From sequence record PZ452594.1: 64,000 nt of DNA, one strand, 5' to 3'. The notes below the pieces were generated by a model, which did no database searches, had not been told where the DNA came from, and saw nothing but the letters and a program-made list of their open reading frames with translations. Of this stretch, positions 53,995 through 58,712 are shown piece by piece. The position numbers and the translations under genes are program-made. Source of the stretch: a phage. Within the stretch, counting starts at the first letter, position 1. Every line of letters begins with the position of its first letter.

Positions 53995-54024
53995 GTAATT
54001 CTCCTTTTATTTAAATTACATGAT

Positions 54025-54032
54025 TATTTATA
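54025..54032 (-). promoter_or_regulatory. late promoter TATAAATA for soc
   Basis: Exact TATAAATA (minus) about 30 nt upstream of the soc ATG. Confidence 0.6.
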
Positions 54033-54077
54033 ATAAATTCTCGCGGCTTTTAAGTCGTCGTTTATTTAAACGAGCTA

Positions 54078-54596
54078 TTAATAGCCTCGGTCTTGACGAG
54101 CGAAATTTTCAGCATTTTTCAGATAATAAAGTTTAAATATTTCTTCAGCTGACATTCCAAGAGCAATAAATTTATTCATGAAAAAGTGAAATTGGTCAAT
54201 CAGTTCAAATTTAATTTCAAGCTGATCTTCAGGAGATAAGTCTTGAATTTTCTTGGATTGCATTTCAGAATAACGTTTCTTCCAAGGTTTCCATACGGCA
54301 GAAGCTTCTTTTTCACCATTACTCATACCACCAAGAGAAGTATATAGCTCGCGAGTTTCATCTGCGATATAATCGTCTTGGTTTCGCAACCAAGCAAGAA
54401 CTTCTCCTGCAGTTTCAAGTGAATCAGGATGACGATTTGTTTCTGGTTTATCATTAGCCAAACGAATCTGTAAATGCCGCTGCATATCAAGCATAACCTG
54501 CAGTGGGTCAATATTGTGCATAATATTCTCAGCATATGCACGATTTGCTTTATCAACACCTTCGATCAAATGAGCGCATTCATTAAAGTAAGCCAT
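54078..54596 (-). CDS. 56: dCTPase / dUTPase (gene 56, MazG-like)
   Basis: 172 aa from internal ATG with SD AGGAAAATA; track N-terminal extension rejected. Confidence 0.8.
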   Translation of the reverse strand: MAYFNECAHLIEGVDKANRAYAENIMHNIDPLQVMLDMQRHLQIRLANDKPETNRHPDSLETAGEVLAWLRNQDDYIADETRELYTSLGGMSNGEKEASAVWKPWKKRYSEMQSKKIQDLSPEDQLEIKFELIDQFHFFMNKFIALGMSAEEIFKLYYLKNAENFARQDRGY

Positions 54597-54667
54597 TATT
54601 TTTCCTTTCAATTCATGGGTTAGTAGATTAATTATACAATAAATATATAAAGCAATAAGGAGGACAT

Positions 54668-54868
54668 ATGGTACAAAAATTAATGGCACTTGTTAATGCC
54701 ATAAAAGGTAATAAAAAACGTATAGCTTTTACTATTTCTGCTATGGTAGGAATTTTACTCTGGAACTTTATTCTATCACCTGTTGCAATTGCACATGGTA
54801 TTAATATTCCAGTAGTTACTCTTGATACATTTGTAGATTTAGCATTTGCTTTAGTTGGGTTGATTTAA
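54668..54868 (+). CDS. plus-strand small membrane protein, 66 aa
   Basis: Strong SD AAGGAGG 6 nt before ATG; hydrophobic; stop overlaps the gene 61 stop on the opposite strand. Confidence 0.5.
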   Translation: MVQKLMALVNAIKGNKKRIAFTISAMVGILLWNFILSPVAIAHGINIPVVTLDTFVDLAFALVGLI

Positions 54869-55893
54869 ATCTTAGCATATTTAGATAGCCGCATTTTAGC
54901 CATCAACCCCTGGGCAATATTATTTTTCATATATTCCATAATTTGTTCAGGGGTTGCACCTTCCTTTCTAATCATATCATTAACATCTTTTGATTTCCAG
55001 GGAGATTTATCCCAAAACATAACCCTTTCTCCTGCATCAACTAATTTAGTCATTCGCTTAATAGTGTCAGGATGACGAGGTTCATTATCTAAAACCCACA
55101 CTCGTCTATCTTTAAATGGAACAACTTCTAGGTCTAATTGACCACCCGTAATAGCTATACCATTTTCAATAAAAAGTGAATCTATAGGTCCTTCTAGAAC
55201 ATATACATCACCATCTTTAACTCGTTCGACTCCATAGATTTTTGTTGCTTCAGGATAAGCTTTGATGGTGATATATTTTTGGGGAGCATCTTTCTTTAAT
55301 GCACGTCCTTGAAAAGACTCAGCTTTTCCATTAGCATTATAAATTGGAATAACAAGACGAGGCTCAGGTATTTCCTTTTTATATGTTCCCGGTGCTATGC
55401 TATTAACTAATTTAGGCCATTCAGTTGTAAACCAAAGATATTTCCATTTATCCTTTGGAATACAACGAGCTTTTATATATTTTATAATTGCATGGTCTTC
55501 CGCCAGTTTATCTAATCTAACACATGACGGAAGAGATTTAATTATTTTCTTCTCAGGTTGTTTAGGAAGTTCTTTAGGTTTTTCTACTGGACGACTTTTA
55601 CCTTTTTCTTTTCTTATTTCAAAGATATACTCACGATATAAATCGGGTTCAAACTCCTTTAAATATATTCCGATTGGCGCATGATAGTTGCAGTTATAAC
55701 AATGAATATTTCCTTCATTATTATCACCATAATACCATCCACGGGCTTTATTTTGATCGGTTTTTGAATCTCCACAAACAGGACATCTAAACCGTAATTT
55801 AAAAGTTGAACTATTATTTACTTGCGCGAATTTAGGTAAATGAGCCAATGCACGGTATGCAAACTCATTATCAATCCAAGGTATTGATGACAT
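54865..55893 (-). CDS. 61: gp61 DNA primase
   Basis: 342 aa; N-terminal zinc ribbon (CPVCGDS...CYNC) and TOPRIM-like region. Confidence 0.93.
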   Translation of the reverse strand: MSSIPWIDNEFAYRALAHLPKFAQVNNSSTFKLRFRCPVCGDSKTDQNKARGWYYGDNNEGNIHCYNCNYHAPIGIYLKEFEPDLYREYIFEIRKEKGKSRPVEKPKELPKQPEKKIIKSLPSCVRLDKLAEDHAIIKYIKARCIPKDKWKYLWFTTEWPKLVNSIAPGTYKKEIPEPRLVIPIYNANGKAESFQGRALKKDAPQKYITIKAYPEATKIYGVERVKDGDVYVLEGPIDSLFIENGIAITGGQLDLEVVPFKDRRVWVLDNEPRHPDTIKRMTKLVDAGERVMFWDKSPWKSKDVNDMIRKEGATPEQIMEYMKNNIAQGLMAKMRLSKYAKI

Positions 55894-55895
55894 TT

Positions 55896-56060
55896 TTACT
55901 CTTCTTTTTCTTTAGATTCCTCTTTTTTCTTTTTAGGAATCTGTTCAGGGCCTTTATTTACTACAGCACCTGATGTTGTTCCAGTAGAGATATTTTCAGG
56001 ATTACCACCTGAATCTCCAGCAACCATATCTTCTTTGATAAATTCTTTATATGTTTTCAT
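55896..56060 (-). CDS. small hydrophilic protein, 54 aa (61.1-like; below track cutoff)
   Basis: SD GAGGTTAAT before ATG; MKTYKEFIKEDMVAGDSGGNPEN... Confidence 0.4.
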   Translation of the reverse strand: MKTYKEFIKEDMVAGDSGGNPENISTGTTSGAVVNKGPEQIPKKKKEESKEKEE

Positions 56061-56061
56061 A

Positions 56062-56418
56062 TTAACCTCTATTCATAAAAGCATTAAAAATTTGGTCATC
56101 AATCGATGGAATAGCAACCTTTTCGGCATCATTTAGCAAATCATTAATTTCATCAGATAGCATAACGCATGTACCTTTATTTCCTGTAATTGTTACTGCG
56201 CAATTACGAACGTTTTCTTTATCAAATTTTAGGTTAATATTTTCGTAGTGAAAATCCTTTAATGCCGAATATATTTTTAAAATGAAATTGTCTTTTACTA
56301 CAATAAACCCAACCTCACTATTAAAACGTGGTTCATGGAAACTGTAATAAACCTTTTCATCTATAAAATCGTATGAAATTTTTTCCATTTTTAAATATGA
56401 AAATTCAGAACTATACAT
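56062..56418 (-). CDS. hypothetical protein (61.2-like)
   Basis: 118-aa ORF. Confidence 0.5.
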   Translation of the reverse strand: MYSSEFSYLKMEKISYDFIDEKVYYSFHEPRFNSEVGFIVVKDNFILKIYSALKDFHYENINLKFDKENVRNCAVTITGNKGTCVMLSDEINDLLNDAEKVAIPSIDDQIFNAFMNRG

Positions 56419-56430
56419 ACTAACCTCTAA

Positions 56431-56724
56431 TTACTCACCTACCACTTCAGCGATGATATTTTTATTATTAAAGTTTTTATCACAATACAGAACGTAATTG
56501 TATTGCATTACACCACCAGACTTAAGCTGTTTTTGCACTTCAGCTTTCATTTCAGGGCGATCGCGCTCAACGATATTCATAATATCTGCTTCAATTTGAG
56601 TTTCAACCTCAGTCTGATCAGCAGTCATAGACCACTCACACAAATCTTTATCATAACCTGCCATAGCAGGCTGAGCAGCACAAGAAGCTAAAGCAAAAAT
56701 TGTAGCAAAGATAAATTTTTTCAT
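56431..56724 (-). CDS. sp: Spackle-like periplasmic superinfection-exclusion protein (61.3)
   Basis: 97 aa with cleavable signal peptide MKKFIFATIFALASCAAQPAMA; third ORF after gene 61. Confidence 0.65.
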   Translation of the reverse strand: MKKFIFATIFALASCAAQPAMAGYDKDLCEWSMTADQTEVETQIEADIMNIVERDRPEMKAEVQKQLKSGGVMQYNYVLYCDKNFNNKNIIAEVVGE

Positions 56725-56784
56725 GATAATCTCCTCAGCAGTTTATGTTTATATAGTATCTCAATTTCCAACAAAAGTAAATAG

Positions 56785-57042
56785 TTATTTTAAAACTTCT
56801 GCGTAATCACATGTTACAAACTGTTTCTCTAGCTTGACGATTTTACGAAAGTATCTTTTACATTGACGAATCTGTCGCTTAGTAGGGCGCACAGCAAACT
56901 TAATAAATTCCACTCGACCAAATGGAGGGCTTTCTTCTGATGGAATATCTAACACCAATTCCCACGTATCTGCAATAAGTGCTTTGAATTGAGTATTTTT
57001 CCTAACGTTATACGGAGTAGGTTTAAATAAAACAATATGCAT
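56785..57042 (-). CDS. hypothetical protein (61.4-like)
   Basis: 85 aa from internal ATG adjacent to the dmd stop. Confidence 0.45.
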   Translation of the reverse strand: MHIVLFKPTPYNVRKNTQFKALIADTWELVLDIPSEESPPFGRVEFIKFAVRPTKRQIRQCKRYFRKIVKLEKQFVTCDYAEVLK

Positions 57043-57043
57043 A

Positions 57044-57226
57044 TTATCCTCGGCAATCCACTTCACATACTTTCTTGTCATCAATGAAAGCTTTAACTAA
57101 TGCTTTATTAACTTCAGCATACTGAGTAGTAGCCCATTGAACGTCATCTTTCATCATTGTGGTTTCTTTAGTAAACATGCTTTCATTCTTAAACCACCCC
57201 ATAAAAACTACCTTTACCAATTCCAT
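57044..57226 (-). CDS. dmd: Dmd antitoxin (inhibitor of RnlA/LsoA mRNA endoribonuclease toxins)
   Basis: 60-aa ORF MELVKVVFMGWFKNESMFTKE... matching T4 Dmd by recall. Confidence 0.85.
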   Translation of the reverse strand: MELVKVVFMGWFKNESMFTKETTMMKDDVQWATTQYAEVNKALVKAFIDDKKVCEVDCRG

Positions 57227-57255
57227 AACAATCTCCTCATTTAACCAACAAGACT

Positions 57256-57285
57256 ACTATACCATAGTCTCGTCAGCTTGTAAAC
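57256..57285 (-). promoter_or_regulatory. T4-type early promoter (GTTTAC-18-TATAGT) upstream of dmd
   Basis: GTTTAC 57280-57285, -10 57256-57261. Confidence 0.45.
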
Positions 57286-58712
57286 TAAAATTTTAATTCA
57301 TTTGCCAAAGCATCTAACTGAGCTCGAGTAGATTCATTTCTTTGATAGCGATTCTGTTCAGCCTGAATCTGTTGTGAACCTGCTACTTCACTCACTTCAG
57401 TTGGAGTAGAATCTTGTTCAATTTCTACCCATTTCTGATTTCCCTTTTGAACACCCATCAAAAACTTATTCCATTTATTCTTATCACCATATCGTGATTT
57501 GATTTGCTTAATTAGTTGTTGTTCAGCAGCTGCTAACTCCTCGGTTTCAATGACCGCAAGCATAAAATCGGCTGTTGCTGGAAGACCGGCAGATTCTGCA
57601 ATATCGCTCATGTTAACATCAGAAGAATCCCAAGCTTGCTTACCAACTTGTGCTGCGGTCCAAAGAACAGTTTCGGTTTCAACAGCCAGAGCACGCAATT
57701 CCTCTGCGATAGCTTTAACAGTTGTGTAACTATTTTCTGAATAAACTCTGATGCGACAAGATTTACAAATACCCAGATAGTCAACAATAATGATTGTTGG
57801 AACAAAATTCTTCTTGAGCTTTAATTCATTTAAAAGCGACCGAAATGTATTAGCGTCTGCTCCACCAGTAGGATACTGTTTAACGATTAAACGTCCAAGA
57901 GTAGATTTCTCACGCCATTTTTCCATTTTTCCTTTATATTCAGCGTAAGAAATATGCCCATCATCAATGTCATCAAGAGAAACATCAAGCATGTTAGCGT
58001 CAATACGTTTAGCACAGACTTCTTCTGCCATTTCCATTGAAATGTAAAGAACATTATGACCGAGCTGTAAATAATCTGCTGCCAATGAACACAGACCTAA
58101 TGACTTACCAACGTTAACACCAGCCATTAAAACGTTCAGTGTTCCAGTCTCAGCTCCGCCTTTAGTAATTTTATTTAGAATTTTGAGTTTAAATGGAACC
58201 TTACGAGCTTTATTCATATAAGATAGCCAACGTGCTTCGTAGTCATCCATCCAATCATGACCAACGTAGCTATCAAATGAAATTGATAATGCTTGGCGCA
58301 TGATGTCAGGAATAGCACCTACATCTGGCATTTTCTTATTTCGTTTTTCCGGAGGAAGCTCAGCATTAGTTTGAATTTCAATTATTTTAGATGTGGCGTT
58401 AAACATCGCCCTTTGCTGAACATATTTTTCTGTTTCTTTTACTAACCAGCTATGGTCTTCTGGAGAATCAGCTAGTTTTGAAATAAGTGTTTTTACACCA
58501 GAATATTCTGTTTCAGTAAATGAACTATTTTCTAATGCAACATTTAACGCATTAATAGATGGAACGCTATGGTACTCATTAACATGAGATTTAATTAATT
58601 TGAATGTATTTTTAGCTGGACCACTTTCAAAATATTCTGAATCCATATATGGCCAAACTTTTGAAAAATAAGCTTGATCAAATATAAGATGAGAAAGAAT
58701 AATTTCTACCAC
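57285..58712 (-). CDS. 41: gp41 replicative DNA helicase (DnaB family)
   Basis: 475 aa; Walker A GVNVGKS and DnaB-like motifs. Confidence 0.95.
   Translation of the reverse strand: MVEIILSHLIFDQAYFSKVWPYMDSEYFESGPAKNTFKLIKSHVNEYHSVPSINALNVALENSSFTETEYSGVKTLISKLADSPEDHSWLVKETEKYVQQRAMFNATSKIIEIQTNAELPPEKRNKKMPDVGAIPDIMRQALSISFDSYVGHDWMDDYEARWLSYMNKARKVPFKLKILNKITKGGAETGTLNVLMAGVNVGKSLGLCSLAADYLQLGHNVLYISMEMAEEVCAKRIDANMLDVSLDDIDDGHISYAEYKGKMEKWREKSTLGRLIVKQYPTGGADANTFRSLLNELKLKKNFVPTIIIVDYLGICKSCRIRVYSENSYTTVKAIAEELRALAVETETVLWTAAQVGKQAWDSSDVNMSDIAESAGLPATADFMLAVIETEELAAAEQQLIKQIKSRYGDKNKWNKFLMGVQKGNQKWVEIEQDSTPTEVSEVAGSQQIQAEQNRYQRNESTRAQLDALANELKF

Follow-up and report, generated by a model that had tools for sequence, protein, structure and literature searches.

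Five small genes lie between the primase gene and the helicase gene of the phage DNA analysed here (record PZ452594.1; the window is the whole stretch of 64,000 nucleotides). The question is what these genes are, and in particular what is encoded by the ORFs of 54, 118 and 85 aa, to which the first-pass annotation assigned no function. The placement of five small ORFs between primase and helicase is confirmed by the ORF coordinates. Positions 55896-57226 are filled by five co-directional minus-strand ORFs of 60, 85, 97, 118 and 54 aa, and this run is flanked by gene 41 for the helicase (58712-57285) and gene 61 for the primase (55893-54865). The features of the locus, from gene 41 towards gene 61, are as follows.

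57256..57284, minus strand: promoter-like site of the sigma-70/T4-early type (TTTACA, 17 nt, TATAGT, with TG upstream) within the 58 nt that separate gene 41 from dmd
57044..57226, minus strand: dmd (gene 61.5), 60 aa, inhibitor of the RNase toxins RnlA and LsoA; 98.3% identical to T4 Dmd
56785..57042, minus strand: tifA (gene 61.4), 85 aa, RNA-binding inhibitor of the endoribonuclease ToxN; 97.6% identical to T4 gp61.4
56725..56784, minus strand: intergenic spacer of 60 nt between tifA and sp
56431..56724, minus strand: sp (spackle, gene 61.3), 97 aa, secreted periplasmic inhibitor of the gp5 lysozyme; 99.0% identical to T4 Sp
56062..56418, minus strand: gene for a 118-aa protein, probably a short paralogue of the AdfA family (PF23813; phrog_4122), in the slot of T4 61.2 (adfA)
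55896..56060, minus strand: gene 61.1, 54 aa, with a putative leader (residues 1-10), a core resembling the gp23 N-fist and a Lys/Glu tail; 96.3% identical to T4 gp61.1; phrog_1823

The gene order and the gene sizes agree with the T4 annotation (61, 61.1, 61.2, sp, 61.4, dmd, 41), and the flanking proteins are 98.2% (primase) and 99.6% (helicase) identical to those of T4. When the locus DNA is used as a query, 510 phage records are matched at 90-99% identity, all of them T4-like, and many Tequatrovirus genomes are 97-98% identical to it. The host genome of the locus is a Tequatrovirus. The five ORFs are real conserved genes rather than chance ORFs; the Pfam, PHROG and PDB assignments are concordant for Dmd, Spackle, TifA and AdfA. 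The genes follow closely on one another: gaps of only 1-2 nt separate the stop and start codons at the dmd-tifA, 118-aa ORF-61.1 and 61.1-61 boundaries. The promoter-like site upstream of dmd is the best promoter match of the region (10 of 12 positions, as a match to the consensus only), and the early promoter of dmd-tifA has been placed upstream of dmd by Srikant et al. (PMC9391042). The island would be transcribed on the minus strand from this early-type promoter. The ribosome-binding region of sp repeats that of dmd as a 19-nt direct repeat (84% identical; 56719-56737 and 57221-57239), and the two copies are 502 nt apart, with dmd and tifA between them. A scan of positions 54000-58000 gives no match to an Rfam RNA family at E ≤ 1.

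There is little doubt that this locus represents the T-even anti-TA island in its T2 form, a set of early minus-strand small genes between 41 and 61, with the roles proposed below for the 118-aa protein and gp61.1. It shares with the T4 island the position between 41 and 61, the strand, the gene order and the early-type promoter upstream of dmd. The two differ in the 61.2 slot, which is occupied by the 118-aa half-length AdfA paralogue here and by the 208-aa AdfA in T4. The architecture of the phage T2 island (AP018813, EcT2_00035 to EcT2_00039) is identical, with 61.1, the 118-aa gene, sp, tifA and dmd, and this arrangement with the 118-aa gene is common to T2 and about 140 sequenced phages. 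A plus-strand ORF of 66 aa lies beside the primase gene in both the window and T2, whereas the dam-type methylase gene that T2 carries between the primase and dCTPase genes has no counterpart in the window. The window begins at gene 31, and the gene for AdfN (30.3) falls just beyond that edge.

The island itself is ordinary and has already been described, because its five genes are the well-studied T4 cluster of dmd, tifA, spackle, an AdfA-like gene and 61.1. Both the name and the concept of a T4 "anti-TA island" have been published, with TifA as 61.4 and AdfA as 61.2 (Srikant et al. 2022, eLife, PMC9391042). The general idea of the first-pass annotation, that these genes lie in an anti-defence and exclusion neighbourhood, is correct. 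Because the region already bears this name, the description "no assigned function" no longer applies to the 85-aa ORF and applies only in part to the 118-aa ORF; in NCBIfam, the 54-, 118- and 85-aa proteins are all without a match. As an island, the locus adds nothing new: it is a T2-type version of a locus in which Dmd, TifA, Spackle and AdfA have been genetically characterised, and structures of Dmd and Spackle exist.

The assignment of the 60-aa ORF as Dmd stands. It scores 153.5 bits against PF17587 (cut-off 27) with all 60 residues covered, belongs to phrog_2102, matches the 'Antitoxin Dmd' chain of PDB 5HY3 (chain B) at E 4e-36, and differs from T4 Dmd only by I23T. The crystallised T4 Dmd binds LsoA. 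The protein of this phage would bind and block the RnlA and LsoA RNase toxins, as shown elsewhere for a nearly identical protein. The 97-aa ORF is Spackle, as had been proposed. It scores 151.1 bits against PF25676 (cut-off 27), matches the PDB entries 'Protein spackle' (6X6O/6XC0/6XC1 and 7CN6/7CN7), and differs from T4 Sp only by K53E. Its N-terminus, MKKFIFATIFALASCAAQPAMA|GYDK, contains a hydrophobic core and an AxA site, and the crystallised chain of 75 residues (7CN6_A) begins to align at residue 23, consistent with cleavage of a predicted signal peptide after AMA22. After export to the periplasm, Spackle would bind the tail lysozyme gp5 of a superinfecting phage and thereby block its entry, as nearly identical proteins have been shown to do.

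The 85-aa ORF was wrongly left without function. It is gp61.4, which now bears the name TifA and whose inhibition of ToxN has been demonstrated (PMC9391042, PMC10853763). The length of 85 aa is counted from the ATG codon; the ORF listing gives a 99-aa form that is extended to a TTG codon. The protein is identical to T4 gp61.4 at 83 of 85 residues and scores 72.5 bits against PF23945/DUF7279 (cut-off 24.5). TifA binds both RNA and ToxN, so that ToxN is trapped in an inactive ribonucleoprotein, and a Pro-Thr helix cap and the basic residues K55, R56 and R59 are required for RNA binding and ToxN inhibition (PMC10853763). P53, T54, K55, R56 and R59 are all retained in this phage (...AVRPTKRQIRQ...), and its TifA would likewise hold the ToxN endoribonuclease together with RNA in an inactive ribonucleoprotein. 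Residue 41 is located at the ToxN interface, where inhibition is strong with Ser or His and weak with Phe (PMC10853763). The protein of this phage has F41, the weaker allele of wild-type T4, and is therefore predicted to inhibit the tested ToxN weakly from a single gene copy.

The statement that the 118-aa ORF has no assigned function is true in part: the protein is a distinct half-length paralogue, but it falls in the AdfA family and its gene occupies the adfA slot. It scores 34.1 bits against PF23813 AdfA (gathering cut-off 27), and this match covers only profile positions 113-211 of 211, so that the architecture of full-length AdfA (~208-216 aa) is absent. With the C-terminal half of the 208-aa T4 gp61.2 it shares only 35% identity, and the last 14 residues are the same in both. 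With AdfA of RB69 and T4 (gp61.2) it shares the C-terminal domain, the slot downstream of sp and the C-terminal tail DDQIFNAFMNRG, which is invariant despite synonymous changes; it differs from them by lacking the N-terminal ~110 residues and by having Thr in place of His164 (RB69 numbering). Proteins of the AdfA family come in three or more size classes (about 118, 145 and 208-216 aa), which interchange in one genomic slot and end in an invariant 12-residue C-terminal tail. The AF2 model of the 118-aa protein is confident (pLDDT 83.8), and its comparison with the PDB gives no informative structural neighbour. From these similarities we infer that the gene encodes a single-domain paralogue of the anti-DarT1 toxin binder AdfA. 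An internal duplication of AdfA was considered as the source of the two halves but is not established, as the BLASTP signals among the N-terminal half, the C-terminal half and the 118-aa protein are only weak (E 0.03 in a tiny database). Deletion of adfA through a TGAATA microhomology was rejected, because the junction in the window differs from the exact product.

Two explanations of this gene can be weighed. That it is a degraded or truncated adfA pseudogene without function is suggested by the confinement of the alignment to the C-terminal half of AdfA and by the 49 nt at its 3' end that are identical to those of adfA, but this explanation is very improbable. The protein constitutes a PHROG family of its own, in which the matches are full-length. 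The gene is contained in 337 phage records, and the protein is 94-100% conserved across about 300 records (94% identical in T2), with homologues at 45-50% identity in Gaprivervirus and related phages. The gene is equipped with a start codon and a ribosome-binding site of its own, its product is confidently folded in the AF2 model, and an intact, full-length adfA lies side by side with it in about 154 genomes. A functional protein would most likely bind a host toxin stoichiometrically and inhibit it. We put forward, tentatively, that this toxin may be an ADP-ribosyltransferase of the DarT family that differs from the DarT1 examined to date. It is favoured by the score above the Pfam AdfA gathering cut-off, by the adfA slot with the same C-terminal tail, and by two published proposals, namely that variants of AdfA are directed at other homologues of DarT and that an anti-DarTG2 factor must exist in T-even phages (PMC11257639). 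It is weakened by the identity of only about 35%, by the uninformative structural comparison and by the residue at the position relevant to binding: His at position 164 of RB69 AdfA enables DarT1 binding (PMC11257639), and RB69 R164 and T4 H165 both align on Thr76 of the 118-aa protein. T2 also becomes sensitive to DarTG1 once adfN is deleted (PMC11257639). Because T2 is sensitive without adfN even though it has a 94%-identical copy of the 118-aa protein, an anti-DarT1 activity of this protein is unsupported, and its target is probably other than the DarT1 studied so far.

The 54-aa ORF, gene 61.1, ends with a stop codon 2 nt ahead of the primase start. No function is assigned to gp61.1 in the literature searched, and in this respect the first-pass annotation holds. 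The gene does not appear to be variable cargo of the island; its product appears to be the remnant of a protein of ~150 aa whose gene adjoins that of the primase. An N-terminal leader is its most distinctive feature. The gp61.1 N-terminus, MKTYKEFIKE, resembles the capsid-targeting sequence (CTS) MKTYQEFIAE of the internal proteins IPII and IPIII and the MKTFKEF of IPI. Across the six reading frames of T4, the strict leader pattern has three occurrences, in IPII, IPIII and gp61.1, and 20 shuffles contain none. Positions 4 and 7 of the CTS determine targeting, and positions 8 and 10 determine processing (PMC9026906). All four mapped positions are present in gp61.1 (Y4, F7, I8 and E10), and the first 21 nt of gene 61.1 are identical to those of T4 ipI. 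Thus, gp61.1 is like the CTS-bearing internal head proteins of T4 in the leader, its four determinants and its DNA. It is unlike them in its mature part, which would be a slightly acidic and probably disordered peptide of 44 residues instead of a basic folded protein, and in the lack of a late promoter nearby. This capsid-targeting leader has apparently not been described before.

[quoted passage not shown] The core of gp61.1 aligns with gp23 residues about 58-94, which contain the maturation cleavage site and the N-fist, with 16 of 37 residues identical and the cleavage Glu aligned; I8-K9-E10|D11 of gp61.1 falls on the gp23 site L63-T64-E65|A66. When the gp61.1 family profile is compared with the PDB, gp23 is the sole match (E 1.4e-5), and when it is compared with six-frame segments of T4, gp23 is the sole non-self match (E 1.9e-7). 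Through gp23, gp61.1 in part shows the kind of match to a structural protein that the first-pass annotation had named as evidence against its reading. The profile search of 1.84 billion proteins gives 51 clusters of 50-251 aa, mostly forms of 50-60 aa or about 130-165 aa, and no major capsid protein at E ≤ 0.001, so that the link between gp61.1 and gp23 reaches significance only when the search is confined to the T4 proteome or the PDB. Unlike gp23, gp61.1 has no HK97-fold body, and it is a free peptide encoded beside the primase gene. Co-variation between gp61.1 and the capsid protein of its own phage is uninformative, since the N-fist of the capsid protein hardly varies (24-25 of 26 residues are the same among T4, S16 and an Acinetobacter phage).

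The history of gene 61.1 is indicated by its relatives. In the four other Straboviridae genera inspected, a form of ~150 aa (phrog_2086), which would be ancestral, lies immediately upstream of the primase gene. The T4 form corresponds to the last ~44 residues of this protein, and in RB69 the 61.1 gene is split into two ORFs. A 30-residue core (EDMVAGDSGG..NIASGTTSGAVVNKGPE) is almost invariant in the short and long forms of 1,433 phage records from many genera. These comparisons of sequence and gene position suggest that gp61.1 is a shortened descendant of a primase-adjoining protein, not a cargo of the island. The 150-aa forms have no capsid-targeting leader, and packaging therefore cannot be the original role of the family. 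In T4-like phages, gp61.1 would have gained the leader of an internal protein, and with this acquired leader it probably enters the prohead core and is cut by gp21 after Glu10.

What the peptide does in T4-like phages can be read in two ways. It may be a fourth CTS cargo, which enters the core by its leader, is cut by gp21 after Glu10, and leaves a 44-residue N-fist-like peptide that is kept in the head or ejected with the DNA. The scarcity of the leader pattern in T4 and in shuffled frames, the agreement of residues 4, 7, 8 and 10 with the mapped determinants and the 5' DNA shared with the ip genes argue for this reading. So does the predicted cleavage site on that of gp23, since gp21 favours I/LxE (PMC12991175). 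The core, which is predicted to be disordered, is like the N-terminal regions of gp23 (later the N-arm and N-fist), which are disordered before capsid expansion (PMC9958956). Several results speak against it, and it is offered as a tentative proposal. On the minus strand, the late promoter TATAAATA is present neither inside the island nor upstream of it, although gp61.1 expressed early could last until prohead assembly. The predicted mature peptide, which begins at Asp11 with DMVAGDSGGNPENIS, is net acidic, with 9 acidic against 7 basic residues, and in this it departs from the known internal proteins, which are basic. Neither the supplementary files on T4 virion mass spectrometry nor the accessible literature on T4 head proteins mentions gp61.1. 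The leaderless 150-aa forms also count against this reading. Alternatively, gp61.1 may be a functionless relic of the 150-aa gene that is kept only because its 3' end holds the translation-initiation region of the essential primase gene, consistent with the retention of just the last ~44 residues in T4, the two ORFs of RB69 and the position of the stop codon. This alternative is unlikely. The near-invariant core of 30 residues in the 1,433 records is located far upstream of the primase ribosome-binding site, and the short forms have gained a specific new N-terminus instead of decaying.

The interest of this locus thus lies in two of its small genes. The members of the AdfA family are candidate inhibitors of other toxins, among which an anti-DarTG2 factor of T-even phages may be found. 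If gp61.1 is a head peptide, T4 has a fourth CTS cargo, and the packaged peptide may act at the sites of the capsid lattice that are touched by the gp23 N-fist, or in the next host. The replication gene cluster would in that case be tied to capsid maturation by a conserved "N-fist mimic", which might serve, for instance, as a ligand of lattice sites or as a substrate or decoy of gp21. For gp61.1, a small T4 ORF without known function, the leader and the core provide a concrete hypothesis, in which an N-fist-like peptide would be packaged by its CTS and cleaved by gp21.

The window derives from a T4-like phage of the genus Tequatrovirus, and 510 phage records match the DNA of the locus with an identity of 90-99%. 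The locus was compared with the T4 reference annotation, which lists 61, 61.1, 61.2, sp, 61.4, dmd and 41. Five small ORFs are present between the primase and helicase genes, exactly where the first-pass annotation placed them, and are tightly packed. The features of the locus, with the island ORFs as in the ORF listing, are as follows.

58712-57285, minus strand: helicase gene 41, upstream flank of the island
57226-57044, minus strand: dmd, 60 aa
57042-56785, minus strand: tifA (gp61.4), 85 aa counted from ATG
56724-56431, minus strand: sp (Spackle), 97 aa
56418-56062, minus strand: AdfA-family ORF, 118 aa
56060-55896, minus strand: gene 61.1, 54 aa
55893-54865, minus strand: primase gene 61, downstream flank of the island
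54668-54868, plus strand: hydrophobic 66 aa ORF between the primase and dCTPase genes, converging on gene 61
54081-54596, minus strand: gene 56 (dCTPase)
56719-56737 and 57221-57239: 19-nt direct repeat, 84% identical, 502 nt apart, covering the sp and dmd translation-initiation regions and flanking dmd-tifA on both sides
56416-56429 and 56058-56071: 14-nt repeat TAGAGGTTA(G/A)TATG, upstream of the 118 aa gene and 61.1 respectively
Upstream of dmd: putative early-type promoter, consensus match TTTACA-17-TATAGT with TG

Dmd, gp61.4, Sp and gp61.1 are 98.3%, 97.6%, 99.0% and 96.3% identical to their T4 counterparts respectively. The anti-defence setting proposed for the island is right. This T4 region has been published as the "anti-TA island", the name given by Srikant et al. 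(PMC9391042). The island is already known, and the T2-type version carried by the window is common. The 60 aa ORF encodes a Dmd homologue, as had been proposed, because it matches PF17587 (153.5 bits) and crystallised Dmd (PDB 5HY3). The 97 aa ORF is likewise confirmed as Spackle by its matches to PF25676 (151 bits) and PDB 6X6O/7CN6; its residue 23, located directly after the AMA signal-peptidase site, is the start of the mature crystallised chain. The statement that the 85 aa ORF has no assigned function is out of date, because this ORF encodes gp61.4, which was renamed TifA by Srikant et al. and inhibits ToxN (PMC9391042). RNA binding by TifA is mediated by a basic C-terminal helix with a P53-T54 cap, and the potency of TifA is tuned by residue 41 (Guegler et al., PMC10853763). 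P53, T54, K55, R56 and R59 are all conserved in the window TifA, and its residue 41 is F41, the weaker T4 allele. T4 escapes from ToxIN by amplification of dmd-tifA (Srikant et al., PMC9391042), and the 19-nt repeat is a possible substrate for these segmental amplifications.

The claim that the 118 aa ORF has no assigned function is partly out of date. This ORF exceeds the gathering score of Pfam AdfA (34.1 versus 27), but its match is confined to profile positions 113-211. AdfA, an anti-DarT1 factor, is encoded by T4 gene 61.2 (PMC9391042). The 118 aa protein is 35% identical to gp61.2 (208 aa) in the C-terminal half only, and belongs to a separate PHROG family, phrog_4122. A broken adfA is very unlikely, because the gene is found in 337 phage records and copies with 45-50% identity are present in Gaprivervirus and related phages. 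The AdfA family has three size classes (about 118, 145 and 208-216 aa), the bodies of which are only 21-47% identical to the window 118 aa protein. All three classes nonetheless share a nearly invariant C-terminal tail, DDQIFNAFM(N/K)R(G/D) (AdfA-family alignment A4; 56062-56103, minus strand, in the window), and synonymous codon changes in this tail indicate selection at the protein level. A confident AF2 model of the 118 aa protein (pLDDT 83.8) contains a five-stranded sheet and helices; no informative structural neighbour of this model was found. Binding of RB69 AdfA to DarT1 is decided by R164H (PMC11257639), and a Thr residue of the 118 aa protein aligns with this position. The 118 aa protein is insufficient against that DarT1, because deletion of adfN alone makes T2 sensitive to DarTG1 (PMC11257639). 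We read this protein as a putative single-domain toxin-binding paralogue. The ribosome-binding site of the following gene, together with its start, is located within the last codons of the 118 aa gene.

Three arrangements of the sp-61.1 slot are known. T4 contains adfA alone, slur03 contains adfA followed by the 118 aa gene, and the window contains the 118 aa gene alone. T2 has exactly the arrangement of the window, and its 118 aa protein is 94% identical to that of the window. In junction-specific searches, the window arrangement is found in about 141 records and both genes in about 154, and the adfA 3' end adjoins 61.1 in a further 233 records, the "both" type counted in. The 3' end common to adfA and the 118 aa gene is identical over 49 nt, and the T4 arrangement is explained by recombination across it. 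The 14-nt repeat copy after sp resembles a scar left by the loss of an adfA 3' end.

Downstream of the primase gene, no dam methyltransferase gene is present between genes 61 and 56 (54078-54865), and tblastn with T4 Dam gives no match in the whole window. In both T4 and T2, this position is occupied by a methylase gene. The plus-strand 66 aa ORF is preceded by a strong ribosome-binding site (AAGGAGG), and is also annotated in T2 and phage C2-3. The gene 56 dCTPase shares only 69% identity with its T4 counterpart, compared with 96-99% for the primase, helicase and island proteins that flank it. This drop in identity marks a mosaic boundary.

The 54 aa ORF (gp61.1) was correctly described as lacking an assigned function, and is the only island member that yields an apparently undescribed feature. 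It begins with MKTYKEFIKE, which matches the capsid-targeting sequence (CTS) of the internal proteins IPII and IPIII (MKTYQEFIAE) as well as the first residues of IPI (MKTFKEF). Residues 4 and 7 of the CTS are responsible for targeting and residues 8 and 10 for processing (reviews that cover the work of Mullaney and Black: PMC9026906, PMC8442874), and the prohead protease gp21 prefers I/LxE (PMC12991175). The corresponding residues of gp61.1 are Y4, F7, I8 and E10. A six-frame search of the assembled T4 genome finds the strict leader pattern only in IPII, IPIII and gp61.1; none of 20 shuffles contains it. The first 21 nt of T4 61.1 and ipI are identical. [quoted passage not shown] The aligned gp23 stretch corresponds to the N-fist, a 25-residue element that is in contact with four subunits and contributes to the Soc site (PMC9958956). 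With the gp61.1 family profile, gp23 is the sole match in the PDB (E 1.4e-5) and the only non-self match among 2,387 T4 six-frame segments (E 1.9e-7); capsid proteins are not significant in a 1.84-billion-protein library. AF2 predicts no stable fold for gp61.1 (pLDDT 61). Public labels of its homologues include 'major capsid domain-containing protein', 'major capsid protein' and 'putative head morphogenesis protein'.

Judged from these sequence similarities, putative packaging of gp61.1 into the head and cleavage by gp21 are reasonable. Three observations count against this proposal: no late promoter was found near gene 61.1, the predicted mature peptide is slightly acidic, and gp61.1 is not mentioned in the T4 head-proteomics literature searched. 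The literature searched, in which older T4 work is thinly covered, contains no description of gp61.1 as a CTS cargo or N-fist mimic.

The gp61.1 motif is found in 1,433 phage records. The long and split forms described below were observed at the following positions in loci of other phages.

L013:1183-1659
L014:1204-1653
L015:1165-1641
L016:1177-1641
L004:2370-2836

In Gelderlandvirus, Lazarusvirus, Ceceduovirus and Schizotequatrovirus, this motif is the C-terminus of an approximately 150 aa protein, phrog_2086, which is encoded directly upstream of the primase in T4-like phages of Vibrio, Aeromonas, Acinetobacter and Salmonella. It is the sole gene between the helicase and primase genes in one Aeromonas phage, and is split into ORF032c and gp61.1 in RB69. 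This ancestry and the leader match indicate that T4-type gp61.1 is an internal-protein leader joined to the last 44 residues of an old protein encoded next to the primase. The gp61.1 protein may be a fourth CTS cargo and a mimic of the N-fist.
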